Shown piece by piece: positions 29,424-59,658 of a stretch of DNA of 64,000 nt. Each line of letters opens with the position of its first letter. Position 1 is the first letter of the stretch. The stretch is taken from the NCBI GenBank assembly GCA_965215885.1, contig CBDCEW010000084.1, forward strand, positions 12,361-76,360. The letters run 5' to 3'. The notes below the pieces were generated by a model. It was not told where the DNA came from. It ran no database searches and saw only the letters and a list, made by a program, of their open reading frames with translations. A program made the position numbers and the translations under genes. Source of the stretch: Candidatus Moanibacter sp. GTDB taxonomy: Bacteria; Verrucomicrobiota; Verrucomicrobiia; Opitutales; UBA2987.

Positions 29424-31318
29424 CAGGGTAAAAGGATTCCAGGAAGCAACTAGCTGATAAGCAAGAAGATAAAAAAAGAGCTAAACAAACCCGAGGGAAT
29501 CAGTCATGTTAAGATGGGATGAAAGACAAAAAATCTTACCAACTGAATCCTTCGATAGATCGTTTAACTCTGCGTCTGGTCCTGCCCGAAGAGCAGGAGC
29601 GATTCAATGATCTATTGAAACAACATCATTATTTACACAGTGCGGGCAGCGCAGGAGAGACCCTGCGCTATGTGGCGCAGATCGACGGGCAATGGATGGG
29701 CCTGCTCTTGTGGGGGGCCGCATCCTACCGGCTGAAGGATCGAGACGAATGGATCGGGTGGGACGGGGCGCAACGGCATGCACGATTGAAACTGGTAGTA
29801 CAGAACCGGCGTTTTCTGATTTTGCCCGGGGTGGATCTTGCAAATTTGGCCTCCAAGACGTTGGGTATGTGCCTGAGAGTCTTAGCCGATCACTGGCAGG
29901 AGGCTTTTGGCTATCGTCCCTTAGTAGCGGAAACGTTCGTGGACCCACAGATTCACCGGGGCACTTGCTACGAAGCGAGCGGGTGGACGCCCTTGGGCTT
30001 GAGCGCGGGATATGGCCGCCAACGCGAAGATTTCTATCAACGCCATGAGCGTCCCAAGCAGATCTGGGTCAAACCCCTCAAGGCTAATGCCCTTGAGCTT
30101 TTGCGCGCTTCAGGGCCATTGCCCGCGGCACAGAGCCAGGCGCTCAATGAAACCGATAACTCCCATGCGGTCTGCCTCAAAGTGGAACAGATGAGCAGCC
30201 TGTGGGAACGCTTCAATCAGATAGAAGACTTCCGTCGTAAAGCGGGCCTTAGATATCGGCTCGCCACGGTCCTGAGCATGATTGTGCTCGGCACGATGTG
30301 CGGCAAACAGACCCTCAAGGGCATCGTGCGCCTGGCCCATCATCTCAATCAAGCCCAATTGCGCGCCTTACGCTCCTGGAAAAACCCCAAAACAGGCCGC
30401 TATAAGGCCCCTTGCTATGATGTCTTCTATCGGGTCTTGCAAAACGTAAAGGCCGAGCTCTTCGATAAAACCCTCACCGAATTCATCTGCTTACAAGACG
30501 GCTGTTTGCCCCGCGATATTGCCGTCGACGGCAAGACCCTCAAAGGCACAAACACCGAAGAATCAAAGGCTCTGCACCTGGTGGCCGCAGTCGATCACCA
30601 AAGCGCTCAAACCTTAGCCCAAGTCGCTACCGCCGATAAATCCAACGCGATCACCGCCGCCCAGACTCTCTTGCGAAAGATGCCCATTTTGGACGGCTCC
30701 ACCTTCACCTTCGACGCCATGCATAATCAAAAAGAAACTGCCCACATCGTCGTCGAAGAACTCAGTGCTGACTATGTTATTCAAATTAAAGACAATCAGC
30801 CCAACATGCATCAATACGCTCAGAATCTCTTCAGCTCCACCCCCTTTTTCTCCACCAAACCGTGGACAATGACCATGGGCGACTCGAAATACGTCAAATA
30901 GCAACCCATTCTCTAAGCGCTCCCTCTGCCGGCCTGCCCCATGCCCGCCAGTTCGCCTGTGTGCAACGCACCTTCCATTATCCAAACAAAGCTGAACCTT
31001 CCTCTGAACGCTCTTACTACGTAAGCAGTCTCGATCCCGCCGATTTGAGCCCTCAACAGTTCCTCTCGAAAATTCGCAACCATTGGTCGATCGAAAATAA
31101 AAATCATTACCCCAAGGGATCGCTTCTTCGATGAAGATCGATGTATGATCCGTAATCATAACGCAGCCAGAATTCTTGCTGCATGCAGGCAACTGGTTCT
31201 CAGCCTCAAGTCTTCCATGGGCGCTGAATCCACTCCCGCACTCTGTGATGATTTCGTCTTTAACTTACATAAGGCCATCAATATCATCACCTAATGCTCC
31301 GAGAATCAAAATACCGTG
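29424..31318 (+). mobile_element. ISAs1-family element with N-terminal DUF4338 domain
   Basis: Imperfect inverted ends CAGGGTAAAAGGATTC / CACGGTATTTTGATTC (11/16). No flanking direct repeat. The right end abuts duplication copy B. Confidence 0.8.
29519..31294 (+). pseudogene. DUF4338-ISAs1 transposase in three frames
   Basis: DUF4338 part (HHYL, RDEWIGW, NRRFLILP, ETFVD, GTCY..SGW) and DDE part (AVDGKTLKG, DAMHNQ, HGRLE, HWSIEN, FDED). Frame changes at CCCCCTTTTT (30840-30849) and at about 31111. Confidence 0.85.
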
Positions 31319-39573: not shown

Positions 39574-39671
39574 TAGGAATCTGTCGGACCTAGAATTCTT
39601 AACACCCCCATATCGACGAATTCATGGTGACAGATCGACATTCCGACGCAGATGAGACCGACAGATTCCTA
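39574..39671 (-). mobile_element. 98-bp MITE, copy A
   Basis: Perfect 14-bp terminal inverted repeat TAGGAATCTGTCGG with CTAG at both ends. Supplies or overlaps the tyrA TAG stop. Confidence 0.85.
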
Positions 39672-40532
39672 GCTGCCCTCCAATTTTAGCCGAAGGCGGT
39701 CGCGGAAAGCTTTGCCGTGTTCGAGGACATTGAGAATCTCAAAGACCTGACCATTTGTGATGGCGGTCTTCATGGCTTGGAGTTCATCCTCAAACCCACC
39801 GATGGCACGGACGATTTCTTCGCGATTCTGTTCGATTATGCATTTCCAGAGACTGGGGCTTGCGGCCGCAACACGCGTCGAGTCGCGCAGTCCGTCTCCC
39901 GCAAAATTGCGCCAGTTGGAGTCTTTGGAGCCAAGGTAGGTACAGAGAACGCTGGCCAAAACATGGGGTAGATGGCTGATATTGGCTACGATTTCGTCGT
40001 GCTGCTCCGGCGTCACCGTTACGACTTCCATATCGAGCGCTTTCCAGAACAGCAGTAGCGATTCAACCGCCTTTTCATCGGTGTCAACTAGAGGTGTTAC
40101 GAAACAGGCCTTCTTACGATAGAGCTCAGCATCCGCATACTGCATACCGCTCTTCTCGGAGCCGGCCATGGGATGCGACCCGACGAATGCCGCATTGCCT
40201 GGAATCAGAACATGGCAATGGCGTGTAATCAGGCTCTTAGTGCTACCGACATCGGTCACGATTGCCCCCGGTTTGACACAACCGGCGATGCGGGCCACTA
40301 TCCCTTGAACGGCTTCAACCGGTGTGCATACAACAACGATATCGGATCCTCGAACTGCCTCTTCAAGGGTCTCGGTTACAGAATCGCACCAGGGTTGTGA
40401 TGCGCATTTGAGGCGTGTTTCGGGGCGGCGCGCCCATAGAATGGTACGCTGAGAAATTTGGCGTGCTTTAACAGCCTGTGCCAGAGAGGCGCCTAGAAGG
40501 CCCGGTGCGATGATAGTGATCTGCTCAAACAT
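39669..40532 (-). CDS. tyrA: prephenate/arogenate dehydrogenase
   Basis: Motifs TDVGSTK, GSHPMAGSEKSG, HDEIVANISHLPH and RDSTRVA. Confidence 0.92.
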   Translation of the reverse strand: MFEQITIIAPGLLGASLAQAVKARQISQRTILWARRPETRLKCASQPWCDSVTETLEEAVRGSDIVVVCTPVEAVQGIVARIAGCVKPGAIVTDVGSTKSLITRHCHVLIPGNAAFVGSHPMAGSEKSGMQYADAELYRKKACFVTPLVDTDEKAVESLLLFWKALDMEVVTVTPEQHDEIVANISHLPHVLASVLCTYLGSKDSNWRNFAGDGLRDSTRVAAASPSLWKCIIEQNREEIVRAIGGFEDELQAMKTAITNGQVFEILNVLEHGKAFRDRLRLKLEGS

Positions 40533-42345
40533 CAATTTTGCTTTGATATTTCAACCGGTAAAACAGGAATGCGATAATGTAAATCAGCAGAGCGAGTTGT
40601 GCCAGGAACTGAAGCCCGAAGAGCATCGATAGATACTCGAGGCAGCCGCCCAAAACGGACCCCAGAAGGTTTGATCCGAGTGCTGAGGTGGGGTTAGCCG
40701 AACGGGAAAGGAGGATCGGGACGATAATACCGGCAAAGAAAATGGGAATAGCGATGAGAAGTCCACCGAGAATGCTTCGAGGGAGCATCTCAAAATGATT
40801 GAGTTCGCTGACCGGGAAATAGCATACCAGAACAACGGCGAAGAAGAGGCCTAAGAACCAGTATGTGGGATCTCTCAGACTGAAATGCATGACAACCAGA
40901 TTGGCCAGCAGAACCATCGTCAGGATGGCAGCAAATACGGCGGAGTTTACAATCCATGTGGATCCGAAAAGAAGGGATAAGCTGGTGATGCCACGCGTCT
41001 CCAAAAGGAGAAATGAAGTGCCCATAAGAAAGAGGGTAGAGTCAAATTCCCGGACTACGTTTTTCTTCCCAAACGCGAATACGACCAATCCCGTTCCCAG
41101 GAGCAGGATGAAGAGCAGTACCAGGAGGTAGCCCCAAGGGAAGACTCCGGGACGTATGTAAAGAAAGGGCCAATCATCACTCGTGGTTCGAACCTGGGGT
41201 ATCTCGCTCCCCGCCTCTATCGTCTGAAAGGTGTTCAGTCGGGCGTAATTGAGCTTGGCACTCTCTTTAGGGACGATGAAGGTTACACTGAAATGTTCTC
41301 TCTCGTGAAAAAGTGGTAGTGGCCGTATGCCGGTCGCCTTCGCGATTGTCGTATAAAGCCGCAAGAAAAACCACTCACCGGCATAAACGCTTATAGTAAT
41401 GCTGAGATGCCCCCTATCAGAAACCAGCTCCCAGGCGGATCGAATGCTGTCCTCGGTGTAGACGTAATTGTCAAGTCGCAACGAGGACATGGATGAAAAC
41501 ATGGCATGCGAGTCGAGGAAACCGAAACTGACGACGTCAAAGGGTTCACCCTGGTATTGTTCAAAGAAAGGTCTGGCATCGTTAACCACCGGAATTACCT
41601 CCGAATTTTGGTAAGGTTGTTCAGGGTGTAGCGATTGTCCCAATGCAATGATCTCTCCGTCGATATCTACAGAATAGATCATGGCGTAATCGTTTCGAAT
41701 TGCCGCCTGAACATCGTTTCCGGTGCCGGCTCCCACAATTAATGCCCTTCTGCGCGCATCATTTATAAAAAAGGGTAAGTCGTAGACGCGTCTTAATCCG
41801 AATGCCAAGAGGTCTTTGCTTTGAGAGAGCTCCTCCCTGGATAACGGGAGCTCGGAGAAATCATGCATGTATTGATGGAAATCCCGGTTTACCCTGATCG
41901 TGATTGCGACAGGATTGTCATGCTTAACATCGATGCGATTGTAAGGTGAGTATATTGCCCCCTGAATGGAAAAAGCGCTCAGAATTAGAATGCCGAGAAA
42001 GGCTGCAATGCTGTACCACTTTCGCGACAGCCAGCAGAACGGTAATCCCCCAATCATGAACCAGATTGGAGGGTTCGCGGAGAACGAGGTTGCGATCGTG
42101 AATGCGATTATGCCCAGGAGCGAGCCGAGCAGATCTGCCGAGTAGGCACGAAGAGTGGGAATTCTACCAAAGAGATACCCAACAGGAGTTCCAGCAAATA
42201 TAAAAACACTGACAATGAAGCAGAAGAGGCAGAGAAAAATTGCGATGTTGAGACTGAAGGTAGAGAGAGACCAAGTGTTCAGCTCCCCATAAGAAAACTG
42301 AGGTAGTCCGTCAAGGGATTTTTTGAGTTTTTTCTCATGTTGTGT

Positions 42346-43656
42346 TTACAAGGCGTTGGCATTTGCTTGCTGAAGTCTTTTCCACACCGGTGAACCGGTG
42401 CGTTGGAGCGATTGGAGATACTTTTGCTCATCGTAGCGTTCGCTATTTTGCCAACAGCGAAACAGAATGCGGGTCCACTTGAGAGCGAGGGCACGAAGAA
42501 TGGTTTGGCGGGGTTTGCCCTGTTCTTTTTTGATCTGGTAAAAGGCCTTTGCCCAGGCACAGTTTCGGATCGAATGTTCGGCAAATTCAACGAAACTTTG
42601 CCGCACGAAGGTAGGAGCCGCCCACCGCCAGTTGACCATTCGTTTCGGTTGTCCGGTTCTTTTGTCCTGCCCGCTGTTGATCGTGACCGGAGCGGATCCA
42701 TTCCACTGGGTCATGTTCTGGGCCGTTTCGAAGTGCGAACGATCGGTCCCGAACGCGCACAGCAACCGGGGACTCATGACCTCGCCGGCTCCGGGAATGC
42801 CACTGAACACGGCTGCATCGGGATGGCTTCTGAATAGCTCCCTGATACGCTTCTCATACGCTTTGATCTGCGGGCACAGGGTCAAAAGCTGTCCGGCCAA
42901 CGTCTGTGCTTTTCTGCTGGATGCTTCAATGATGGCTGCATCTTCGGTCAAGGCTCGTGCGTTACCGATCAATTCGAGACGCTCCTGGATTTTGGCGTCA
43001 CTGCGACAGTTGTGCTTATAGAAGAACTTTCGCAAGACACCCTCCGATGCTCTGTGCAGCTTCTTGAGGGTCGGCCAACGCAATATAAAGTGCAGGCACA
43101 GGCCACTGCCTAGATCATCGAACAATTTCAAGACCAAAGGGTTATATTGCTTCAGACAACTGCCCAACTGCTGTTCGAGGCTGGTAGCCTGATCGACGAA
43201 TCCACGGCGGTCCTCGCACAACAGGTTCAGCTCCCGTGTTTGGGCCGTGTCAGGTATGAAACATTTGGTAAAAAGCTCGGGATGTTTGAGGAAAAACTCC
43301 GCGTGTATTTGCGCATCGACCGGGTCGCTCTTGGCCCCTGATGGATACAGCGCCCGGCGATAATCCTTCGCCCTGGCCGCATGCACTGGATAGATATCGA
43401 CAAACTCCAAGCCCATCAGAAAGTTGATCAACCCTCCTCGCTTCTGGTCCACCACCATGGCCATGCGCTTGCCCACGCTGGCATACTTTTCTCTCATCTC
43501 TACGGCAAATTCGTGCAAGCTGACCGCATCCTGCGCCACCTGTCGATGGGTCCCTTTTCCCGTTTCGCTCTCTATGATCCACAGATCGTTTTTCTGATCC
43601 GCCCAATCAATTCCTATCACCACACTATATCGATTTGTTTTTTCCCTTTTCTGCAT
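42346..43656 (-). CDS. IS110 DEDD recombinase/transposase
   Basis: Motifs VIGIDWA, KSDPVDA, GIPGAG and APVTINSG; 436 aa, intact. Confidence 0.93.
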   Translation of the reverse strand: MQKREKTNRYSVVIGIDWADQKNDLWIIESETGKGTHRQVAQDAVSLHEFAVEMREKYASVGKRMAMVVDQKRGGLINFLMGLEFVDIYPVHAARAKDYRRALYPSGAKSDPVDAQIHAEFFLKHPELFTKCFIPDTAQTRELNLLCEDRRGFVDQATSLEQQLGSCLKQYNPLVLKLFDDLGSGLCLHFILRWPTLKKLHRASEGVLRKFFYKHNCRSDAKIQERLELIGNARALTEDAAIIEASSRKAQTLAGQLLTLCPQIKAYEKRIRELFRSHPDAAVFSGIPGAGEVMSPRLLCAFGTDRSHFETAQNMTQWNGSAPVTINSGQDKRTGQPKRMVNWRWAAPTFVRQSFVEFAEHSIRNCAWAKAFYQIKKEQGKPRQTILRALALKWTRILFRCWQNSERYDEQKYLQSLQRTGSPVWKRLQQANANAL

Positions 43657-43699
43657 CCCTTTGTTCCTTTAGTTTGTCTTTTTGCTTTTTTCAAAGGCA

Positions 43700-43985
43700 C
43701 TGGATGTCCAGGCGAAGTCCTTATAGTTGGATCCTGTTATGAGGATGTAAACTGAGTGTTCGTTTTCGGTCATCCAGGCAGGCCGTCCACTCGAAATTCT
43801 GTCGGAAGTCCTCTTCGGACTGATTCCTAAGTTCGTAGTGGACGGCTGCCTTTGAATATTTTCACCCTTAGCCAAACAAACTCTTTGACCCATCGCCAAC
43901 CACTGATCGGCCAAGTTATTCACAAAGGGGCCTCGCCGAGTTTTTCCTGCGGCTCCACTCGGTCCCTTGGATGAATAACCTGGAG
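43700..43985 (-). ncRNA. predicted IS110 bridge RNA (5' hairpin, target-binding loop, donor-binding loop)
   Basis: Two stem-enclosed internal loops, each closed by CGAA/UUCG. Guides match the MITE terminal repeat (43798-43806, 43822-43831) and the circle junction (43720-43727, 43747-43756). Transcript ends are estimates. Confidence 0.8.
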
Positions 43986-44453
43986 CTACTATAAGTAAAC
44001 TGAGGTGTCTGGAAACTTGAGGTGCACCAGTCCAAATTTCTGGGAAAATGCAAAAGGGATGCCGACCAAGAATAGAGAAGGGAGAGTAAGATGCACGAGC
44101 CCGCTAAATCGTTTTCCCAACGCGACTCCAATCCCCATTCCCAGAAAAGCGCCGATTAATACAATGTTGTTGAAGTAGGCGAATATCCTGATCTGGGTTG
44201 TGCTCCAGCGGATTATTGCCAGCTCAAGGGCTAATATTCCGAAGGTCGCCAATCCAATTTTGAAAGCGACTGGTCCGCCTTTCTCAGCCCACCCCGTCTC
44301 CTTTAGCAGGTTCAAGCGCATTTTGAGAGCGAGAGTTCTCTTCTCGTAGAAAAACCTTTACCCTTCATCAGCTGTAGGAGTAAACTGGGAGTGAATCTTC
44401 TCTAGGTGCCTGTCGGCGAAGTGAGAAAGTCTCTTAGGATCGTTTGTAGATTC

Positions 44454-57660: not shown

Positions 57661-57692
57661 TGTTTCTGGCCCGTGAATTGAAGCAAAGCAAG

Positions 57693-59607
57693 ACCCCATT
57701 CGAAAAGCCTTTCGAGCGGGCGGTTTAAGGTTCTCCGCCACGGGCGGACCAGCCTATGGCTGGCAGGTTTCGGGTTTTAGGCTGCCGGCGCTGCCGATGA
57801 GCAGGTATTGAGCGGCCATCGGCGTGGCTTGCTGCACAATACGTATATTTGCCGCTGTCTGGAGGCATACTCATCCCGTGGTGCTTTTTTCTCTGAGCTT
57901 CAAAGCGGTCAGATTCAGGCTGCCTGTTCCAGTTCCTCCCCTCGGCGTTTCTTCATCAGTATGATGCGGCAGAAGTTGTAGGCCAGAACCTTCTCGAGCA
58001 GTTCATCGCCTACCGCATCGATGCCGCGGCGGCCGAGTTCGCCAAAGGCAAATCCATCTTTAATCGTGAACATCAGCGACTCCACTGCGGAGCGATCGCG
58101 GCGTGCCTCGCGATACGCCTCGCTCTCCCAGTCCTCGGGGGTGGTCAACTTCTTGCCCTTCGCCCCACTGATACTGATCTGCTTTACCCCCATGCTCAGC
58201 ACCTCCTTGCGTCCCTTCGCCGAAGCATATCCGTCATCGGTGCTGACCAGTTCAGCAATGACACCGGTGCGCTTGATCGAATCGCCGATGGCCGGCGCCA
58301 GCTCAATGGAGTCTGCCGCGTTGCCTTGCGGTACGATCAGGCTGGTGACAAAACCGTTTTCGCTGCGAACCAGTTGTGGCTTGTACCCGATCACTGGATT
58401 GCGGCTGCCCTTCTTGATGTAGGCCGCCGATCCGTCCGAGAGGCTCAGGACCTTCTGTGTGGACGGTAGCTTCTTTTCGTGAAACACCCGATCATGAGCA
58501 TACTCAACAACCCGCTTGGCGTCGGCAATATCGCCCCTGATCTGGCTCAATGCCCGCTCCAGAAGCTCCCGGCGAGTGGGAGGCAGTGAATCCATCGACA
58601 GGCCCTCTTCAAGATGGCTCAGTTCCCCCGTTAGTGAGTCGGCCGCCTTGCGGCCCCGCTTGAGCAACCGCCGGTAGTGTTTCTTCAGCTTGCCCTTCGA
58701 CTTCGGTTTGCCCGCGGCCAGACAAATCTGAAACTCCAGCTTGTCCATTTCCTCCAGCCAACGCCCAACCCATCCCTTGCGAAAATCCTCCAGCCCGAAG
58801 ACATGCAACTTCTGACCCAAACGATTGGCCCGCATCAAAAGACCGCCCAGAATCTTCCCATCGGTGGGCCAGCAGCTGTTTGCTTTCACCGAGGTGCTGT
58901 CGATCGTCAGCTTCCCGAAATCGTCCCATTGCTCCTGGAGGATAAACCCAATCTGTTTATCAAAGATCAACTCGCGGGTCGTATGGCTGACCAGGTTCAC
59001 GTTCTCCAGAATCGTCGTCACCGCCGGCATTCTCAGTCCCCCGCTCTGCAAAAATCCGTACAAGCTCATCGACTCGCGCACAAACCGCCGTGCCGGTTTC
59101 GTGGTCAACGAACCCAGAAACCCTCGAAGCATCACGAACACGTATACCGCATAAGCCGGCATCCGCGGCCGGCCTGCCCCAAGATTCAATTCAGCAGCCA
59201 GAATATTCTCCTCCTCGATGTCCAGCTCCGGCAGCTCCGCTGTGCGCCCTTCAAAGAACCTGCGATCTTCCAATCGAAGTTTCTTCTTCTCACGTGCATG
59301 GGCGTCCAGATCCTTCTCGATCGCCTCGATGATTTGCGGCGCGAACCCGGCCAATTCTTCAACTTCATCCAGAAAATCACGGAAATCCGTGTCTGGAACC
59401 GGCAGAATGAGGTTGCTAAGGGGCGTCTTATCGCTTTTGTTCTCCTCTGTCGCACATGTTGGCATGTTTAACTCCTTTCTTAATCTTAGGTTGTTAAACA
59501 CTAGCATGTTGCGACACTTTTTATCAAGCCAAAAAATGATTTTTCTCAAGTTTTTCTTGCGCCTTTTGCGCCTCTTTGCGGCCAATCAGTAGCTTTTCGG
59601 ATAAGGT
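57693..59607 (-). mobile_element. IS5/ISNCY-like element, copy 2 (1915 bp)
   Basis: Inverted ends ACCCCATTCGAAAAG / ACCTTATCCGAAAAG (12/15). 4-bp direct repeat CAAG at 57689-57692 and 59608-59611. Confidence 0.9.
57915..59465 (-). CDS. DDE transposase, 516 aa
   Basis: RBS AAGGAG before ATG 59465; motifs IDSTSVKANSCWPTD, STDDGY and RSAVES. Confidence 0.88.
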   Translation of the reverse strand: MPTCATEENKSDKTPLSNLILPVPDTDFRDFLDEVEELAGFAPQIIEAIEKDLDAHAREKKKLRLEDRRFFEGRTAELPELDIEEENILAAELNLGAGRPRMPAYAVYVFVMLRGFLGSLTTKPARRFVRESMSLYGFLQSGGLRMPAVTTILENVNLVSHTTRELIFDKQIGFILQEQWDDFGKLTIDSTSVKANSCWPTDGKILGGLLMRANRLGQKLHVFGLEDFRKGWVGRWLEEMDKLEFQICLAAGKPKSKGKLKKHYRRLLKRGRKAADSLTGELSHLEEGLSMDSLPPTRRELLERALSQIRGDIADAKRVVEYAHDRVFHEKKLPSTQKVLSLSDGSAAYIKKGSRNPVIGYKPQLVRSENGFVTSLIVPQGNAADSIELAPAIGDSIKRTGVIAELVSTDDGYASAKGRKEVLSMGVKQISISGAKGKKLTTPEDWESEAYREARRDRSAVESLMFTIKDGFAFGELGRRGIDAVGDELLEKVLAYNFCRIILMKKRRGEELEQAA

Positions 59608-59658
59608 CAAGCTAGGCCGGAAATCACAGACCTTCATCAATTCGTCTTCATCGTATCT

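Follow-up and report, generated by a model that had tools for sequence, protein, structure and literature searches.

An IS110-family element in a membrane-protein gene

The window, meaning the whole stretch of 64,000 nucleotides that was analyzed, belongs to contig C84 of an assembly of 6.36 Mb in 105 contigs (90% complete, 5.5% contamination). On its minus strand, at 42292-43995, lies an IS110-family bridge-recombinase element of 1704 bp, the CT core at each end included. Its limits were fixed with the help of nine further full copies. All 10 full copies in the assembly are 99.8-100% identical (0-2 base differences) and have sharp limits, and every one of them starts and ends with CT, corresponding to a 2-bp core without further target duplication. 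The window copy carries a private change at position 43963, at which it differs from all four sequencing runs compared. Two partial copies were also found, a 3' piece where the same contig begins and an internal fragment of 211 bp. The non-coding ends of the element are a long left end (~340 bases) and a short right end (~55 bases).

The recombinase (transposase) of 436 amino acids (aa) is encoded at 42346..43656 (minus strand). It scored 64.5 bits with PF01548 and 38 bits with PF02371, above the respective cut-offs of 29 and 21.3, and contains both the RuvC-like DEDD domain and the Tnp20 domain by which the IS110 group is recognized. The score with NF033542 was 119 bits, under the cut-off of 140, and the structures of IS621 and ISCro4 were matched weakly (IS621, E 2e-4). 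The element is a new, distant member of the known IS110 family. The catalytic positions are D17, D70, D111, D114, and S328; four of these (D17, D111, D114, and S328) are conserved, while the second one is D instead of E. Residue 70 is Glu in 46 of the 50 aligned proteins and Asp in four, namely this recombinase and its three closest relatives (70-79% identical). Since 10 near-identical copies are present, the recombinase with Asp for Glu is probably active.

The flanks of the element are the two parts of one host gene on the minus strand. The 5' part (43996..44321) is identical to residues 1-110 of protein P0001 at 109 of 110 positions. The 3' part (40525..42291) is 98% identical to the same protein and has a 2-base frameshift in a CT run; a search with this part had led to P0001, which is intact and 698 aa long. 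The gene encodes a membrane protein, relatives of which have a spermidine-synthase-like methyltransferase domain (PF01564 was detected in P0004 and not in P0001). Thus, both flanks match a single intact protein, in agreement with an earlier, sequence-only reading of this DNA, according to which the element had inserted into a coding gene. That reading had also rebuilt the empty site. Intact P0001 has SVYLWGAE spanning the insertion point and reads FPDTSVYLWGAE over the insertion site, the same as the rebuilt sequence, so that the reconstruction held across the junction. The junction is scarless, with 0 bases lost or duplicated, the empty allele being deduced from protein. The empty allele was seen in this form, as a protein reading, and not as DNA: the 60 relatives included no same-genus genome, and no joint skipping the element was present in the four runs compared, three of which (X3, X8, and X16) have broken or absent cover of the flanks, so that this result counts neither for nor against an empty allele. 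The rebuilt allele is itself broken, as the CT run at 42260-42271 is two bases short of what P0001 requires; run X1 has no gap at this CT run.

One short-read contig of run X1 covers 41300-43995 with three changes and no gap, and thereby bridges the right junction. A second X1 contig (43966-44700) holds the left junction and extends 30 bases into the element, one short of the bridging rule applied. Run X1 is possibly the source sample itself. An additional feature of contig C84 is an inverted near-duplicate of the 11.5 kb downstream flank, which has the same right junction (second copy, C84:1-491), two extra IS insertions, and ~19 substitutions. Of the four flank differences between the two variants in the compared stretch, X1 shares two. 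Because the same right junction occurs in two assembly variants and in X1, more than a single variant of the sequence has it. The inverted near-duplicate, the 5.5% contamination, the mere 30 bases of element in the X1 contig at the left junction, and the possibility that X1 is itself the source sample would be compatible with a repeat-induced misjoin, which would have put the element at a sequence resembling its own end. We consider such a chimera hardly credible, as both flanks belong to one gene from which 0 bases are missing and the right junction recurs in both variants and in X1.

The near-duplication itself (G000:C84:1-15348 versus C84:43679-55142, 99.6-99.8% identity) starts inside the second element copy at the contig start. 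A second strain, a duplication, or a misjoin are all possible origins. That the duplicated region might be an expanded IS110 unit is not supported at its far boundary, where another IS follows directly and neither a core nor a donor arm is present; at the other end, the region is truncated where the contig begins.

Predicted bridge RNA and the roles of its loops

The 340-base left end folds much more stably than shuffled sequence, into a 5' hairpin followed by two stem-loops. The predicted bridge RNA occupies 43701..43982 on the minus strand (fold z -4.8 for the whole) and comprises the 5' hairpin (~43912-43982, z -3.2), a putative target-binding loop (43777-43850, z -7.1), and a putative donor-binding loop (43701-43776, z -2.7). 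An Rfam search with it yielded no family at threshold. In the target-binding loop, the left target guide (43822..43830) fits the left flank of nine of the 10 copies at 6-8/8 and the right target guide (43799-43806) fits the right flank of the same number at 5-6/6. Nine full copies occupy the corresponding programmed target, AGGAAT-CT-GTCGG. Informative loose ends at the element limits in three other runs were all of the target type (5/5). The donor-binding loop spells the element's own ends, with a left donor guide at 43747..43756 (8 covarying bases, 43749-43756) and a right donor guide at 43720-43727, which is complementary to the element's left end. Each loop further has two candidate handshake bases: AA at 43797-43798, which complement the donor's TT preceding the core and were assigned by analogy to PMC11208158, and GA at 43718-43719. 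None of the guide positions varies across the 10 copies, whose differences (at most two bases) lie elsewhere. Left-end look-alikes without a transposase were observed at two further places in the assembly, a 77%-identical 5' hairpin (G000:C6:7714-7800) and a 26-base start near another IS (G000:C41:8930-8955); they are possibly relics of related IS110 elements.

The extent of the left donor guide was examined by covariation in relatives. Eighty of 172 loci could be parsed, one of the 80 being this element, and the parsing pattern fixed the first five guide bases, so that only the later positions are informative. The guide agrees with the donor at -4, -3, and -2 in 78, 62, and 54 of the 80 loci, respectively. 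Identity at all of the positions -4 to -2 was found in 17 of 33 distinct combinations, a value reached in 0 of 10,000 permutations. Agreement falls to 25/80 at -1 and to 41/80 at the core C, and therefore the secure left donor guide has 8 bases. The 10/10 match that the sequence-only reading had credited to this guide accordingly stands as 8/8, plus two further positions (43747-43748) of unproven role. The idea that the A at -1 of the guide is a conserved safeguard mismatch was not supported, since this base varies among the 80 loci (A in 38, T in 33, C in 8, and G in 1).

Next to the guides, the handshake bases were surveyed in 73 complete relatives whose flanks are distinct, taken from 233 loci. 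A right-flank match of at least 4 bases was present in 62 of the 73, versus 9.8 in shuffles. The base following the right donor guide, which is the first of the handshake bases GA, forms a Watson-Crick pair with the target base at -1 in 68 of the 73 and with the element's own donor in none. This pattern is the one described for IS621 in PMC11208158. Because nine of the 10 copies lie in the target, and because guides and handshake bases covary in relatives, the roles that had been assigned to the target and donor loops are right. In the present element, T precedes the core in both target and donor (handshake bases 43718-43719 and 43797-43798), and thus the inner handshake base cannot distinguish them. 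A G.T pairing at the inner handshake was found in one of the 73 relatives.

Among the relatives, the loci L021-L242 have a near-fixed donor (CTCAG, four variable bases, CT, TATAG) and are found across several phyla. This donor also serves as a junction promoter, and the targets vary freely. In L122, L125, and L051, CT-TATAG from the element's left end recurs within the inner stem of the donor loop.

A donor-like insertion site

At the rebuilt site in the host gene, the target guides match poorly (left 3/8, right 2/6), as had been noted before, while the other nine copies score 6-8/8 and 5-6/6. The target loop cannot have read the site. The donor guides, conversely, score 9/9 (left) and 4/6 (right) here and 2-4/9 and 1-2/6 at the other nine copies. 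Tabulated in this way, nine of 10 copies occupy target-like sites and one a donor-like site, a distribution that is not that of exchanged loop roles. The window copy is thus in a site that matches both donor guides (8/8 on the secure bases, 4/6) and not the target guides, which is what insertion of a donor into a donor-like sequence entails. The match is two-armed: only the left arm had been credited before, and the right arm reaches 4/6, or 5/6 when one U.G wobble is counted.

The rank of this site was determined genome-wide. When 741,342 unoccupied CT cores from the two strands were scored against the donor guides, the maximum was 12/15, attained by one site; the occupied site has 13/15. When scored against donor DNA over the 14 non-core bases, the best other value is 11 (23 of 741,278 sites), versus 13 here. 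With 8-base guide scoring, the occupied site has 12/14, which is reached by 0 of 741,278 other cores. A perfect 8-base left arm is shared by 19 other cores, none of which has 4/6 on the right arm and none of which is occupied. Moreover, 124 perfect programmed targets in the genome were left empty, so a shortage of targets is not the reason for the choice of site. A REP-like repeat contains the programmed target; facing pairs ~95 bases apart are present in the window at 39575, 39670, 49984, and 50079, and these four motifs are among or near the 124 empty perfect ones.

The two junctions preserve a record of the exchange. In the left junction (43988..44006, minus strand), the host donor-like arm (43996-44006) is followed by the core (43994-43995) and the element's right-donor arm (43988-43993), which doubles as a -10 box. 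In the right junction (42286..42314, minus strand), the element's left-donor arm (42294-42302), preceded by a -35 box (42309-42314), adjoins the core (42292-42293) and the host donor-like arm (42286-42291). The 15/16 direct repeat that the insertion had been said to create is indeed present, at 42289-42304 and 43991-44006. Donor and host site differ at -1 (T versus A) and at +4 (A versus G). The left junction retains the host A and the donor A, whereas the right junction retains the donor T together with the host G. The Tyr of P0001 requires the host A at -1. The retained host A and G place both crossovers within the 5 bases that contain the core.

This position bears on whether host recombination at the 15/16 bases of microhomology could have integrated a circle of the element, the bridge RNA playing no role. 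The donor DNA match extends two bases to the left of the guide, where the site mismatches the guide RNA, and these bases are superfluous under a pure guide model; overall, 13 of the 14 non-core bases are identical to donor DNA, as such recombination would have it. Both crossovers, however, fell into the shorter, 5-base core block and outside the 10-base identical block, which fits a recombinase and not microhomology. RecA usually needs far more than 16 bases of homology, and the 16 bases available here are well under that length. We therefore regard this route as very unlikely.

The site might instead have been the target, in trans, of a bridge RNA encoded by another IS110 element or by a copy with altered guides. 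The assembly is 90% complete and has the degenerate left-end look-alike on contig C6, which leaves some room for such an RNA. Against this, no other IS110 family was found in the assembly, all 12 PF02371 matches belonging to this element, and the copies differ by at most two bases, none in the guides. A loose search for another loop spelling the site carries no weight either way: it gave 266 matches, and the 60 that were inspected resembled chance or the element's own donor loop. A foreign guide would also leave the rank of the site as the best donor match unexplained. The probability of this scenario is, in our estimate, close to negligible.

Taken together, the loop roles, the top-ranked donor match, the crossover at the core, and the lack of another IS110 family in the assembly support the donor-by-donor recombination that had been proposed for this copy. 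We assign a probability of about 0.78 to the reading that the insertion was such an event, brought about by a complex of two donor-binding loops. The evidence is a single event, for which 0 of 73 relatives provides a second natural example. The main rival invokes the same enzyme starting from a half match, with a donor loop reading the left arm and the core only and the right-arm match being incidental. It draws support from a re-analysis of programmed IS621 insertions, in which left-donor-only sites are more frequent (21/168) than two-armed ones (4/168) (10.64898/2026.08.31.748434), from natural expanded IS110 loci, which have mostly one-sided matches (10.64898/2026.08.14.744561), and from the two mismatches in the right arm at our site (4/6). 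However, 20 cores have a left arm that fits all 8 bases, and the occupied one has the best right arm among them, for which the chance is 1 in 20. We hold a one-armed start to be improbable, although it deserves more weight than microhomology, a guide in trans, or a misjoin.

In the two-donor-loop reading, events may be pictured as follows, with bridge RNA expression, circle formation, and the two-donor-loop complex all inferred from work on IS621 and IS622. The element would circularize, and its joined ends, which are the donor, would create a promoter for the bridge RNA. In the computed junction, -35 and -10 boxes are spaced 17 bases apart, as judged by consensus match alone. Usually, one target loop and one donor loop would direct insertion into the repeated intergenic target. 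Once, a complex with two donor loops may have paired the donor of the circle with the chromosomal look-alike in the host gene, and strand exchange at the CT core would then have left the element with a donor-like junction on either side. The conserved L-W-G codons supply the right arm of the look-alike. Of the 16 full-length homologues of the host protein that were aligned, 15 have L-W-G, and the donor likeness is therefore a coding accident and not an older scar. Among the contigs of the four runs compared, no circle joint was detected; one RNA run contained a fraction of 0.57 of the sequence words compared.

The left junction now fully matches both donor guides, and the promoter-like site across it is weak (9/12). 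By inference, it would constitute a complete donor in the chromosome. One may speculate further that the element is naturally tilted to donor-loop reactions, given T at -1 in both target and donor, whereby the inner handshake would be unable to promote exchange at the target over other exchanges, and Asp for the catalytic Glu, and that the insertion created a rearrangement hot spot; we rate this combined proposal as doubtful. If it were true, the left-junction donor would be able to recombine with any of the 124 empty targets, and the inverted near-duplicate that begins inside the element on C84 could be such a product. A rearranged junction joining the host left arm to a target right arm was not found in the assembly, in which there is only one other 9/9 left arm.

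Relatives and known systems

Donor-like insertion was sought among related elements (32-47% protein identity). None of 73 occupies a donor-like site; their top score is 6/13, versus 12/13 here. When single junctions were scored, 82 left ones reached at most 5/8 and 111 right ones at most 3/5. In this survey, unparsed loci were dropped and the kin are not independent. A single-protein search of genome contigs and an alignment search of viral contigs yielded no relatives. In the clade, the natural share of donor-like insertions is 1 of 83 parsed insertions, with a 95% interval of 0.03-6.5% that is subject to the same non-independence of kin. The counts did not show the present element to be more prone to donor-like insertion than its relatives, as 1/10 versus 0/73 is not significant (Fisher p 0.12).

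One of the closest known systems is IS621 (PMC11208160, PMC11208158), with which the element shares the IS110-group layout, the CT core, a promoter formed where the ends join, the four guides and the handshake bases, a repeated intergenic target, and rare donor-like insertions for which a pair of donor loops is the explanation. Specifically, PMC11208160 describes donor-like genomic insertions of IS621 in E. coli at low frequency, and PMC11208158 describes donor-donor recombination in vitro, modelled as two donor loops. The recombinase differs from IS621 in length (436 versus 328 aa in the structure), in its distant sequence (E 2e-4), in Asp for Glu, and in its guides. Further, the donor-like insertion is natural and inherited here, whereas those of IS621 were selected in an assay. 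IS622 likewise inserted its donor at genomic sites resembling the donor (10.1101/2025.05.14.653916), and the two-donor-loop route dominates its insertion in human cells. There, 91.3% of insertions were donor-like with a target occurring once; here, the share is 1/10 with 124 perfect targets empty.

Other reports differ in how many arms are matched. Across 11 bacteria, donor-like insertions are rare (10.64898/2026.04.29.721476). Of 168 sites of programmed IS621 insertions, four were two-armed and 71 one-armed (10.64898/2026.08.31.748434); the half-match recombination in that study resembles our case in that a donor loop recognizes the site without the target loop. The natural expanded IS110 loci (10.64898/2026.08.14.744561) also have donor-matching boundaries in natural genomes, with one-sided donor matches and complete pairs essentially absent. 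The rough natural share of 1/83 agrees with the laboratory value of 4/168 (10.64898/2026.08.31.748434). Our literature search, within the main texts of mostly open-access papers, yielded no natural two-armed insertion that has become fixed in a host gene. The present case is a clean, natural, and fixed example of a side reaction already known from the laboratory, and it leaves the mechanism unchanged.

Donor-like insertion is a main specificity problem for bridge recombinases as editors. The present case shows it occurring for a wild-type element within its own host, in an inherited form. It also shows that this route can strike coding genes, which the programmed target avoids, and that it took the best two-armed match in the genome. 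For a distant enzyme, the locus provides a ready pair of substrates.

IS copies are very abundant in the genome, and the window contains further ones. A high-copy IS at 29424-31318 encodes a 460-aa protein in which DDE transposase domains are fused to a DruA-like one, and a third high-copy IS, at 57691-59615, encodes a 556-aa DDE protein.
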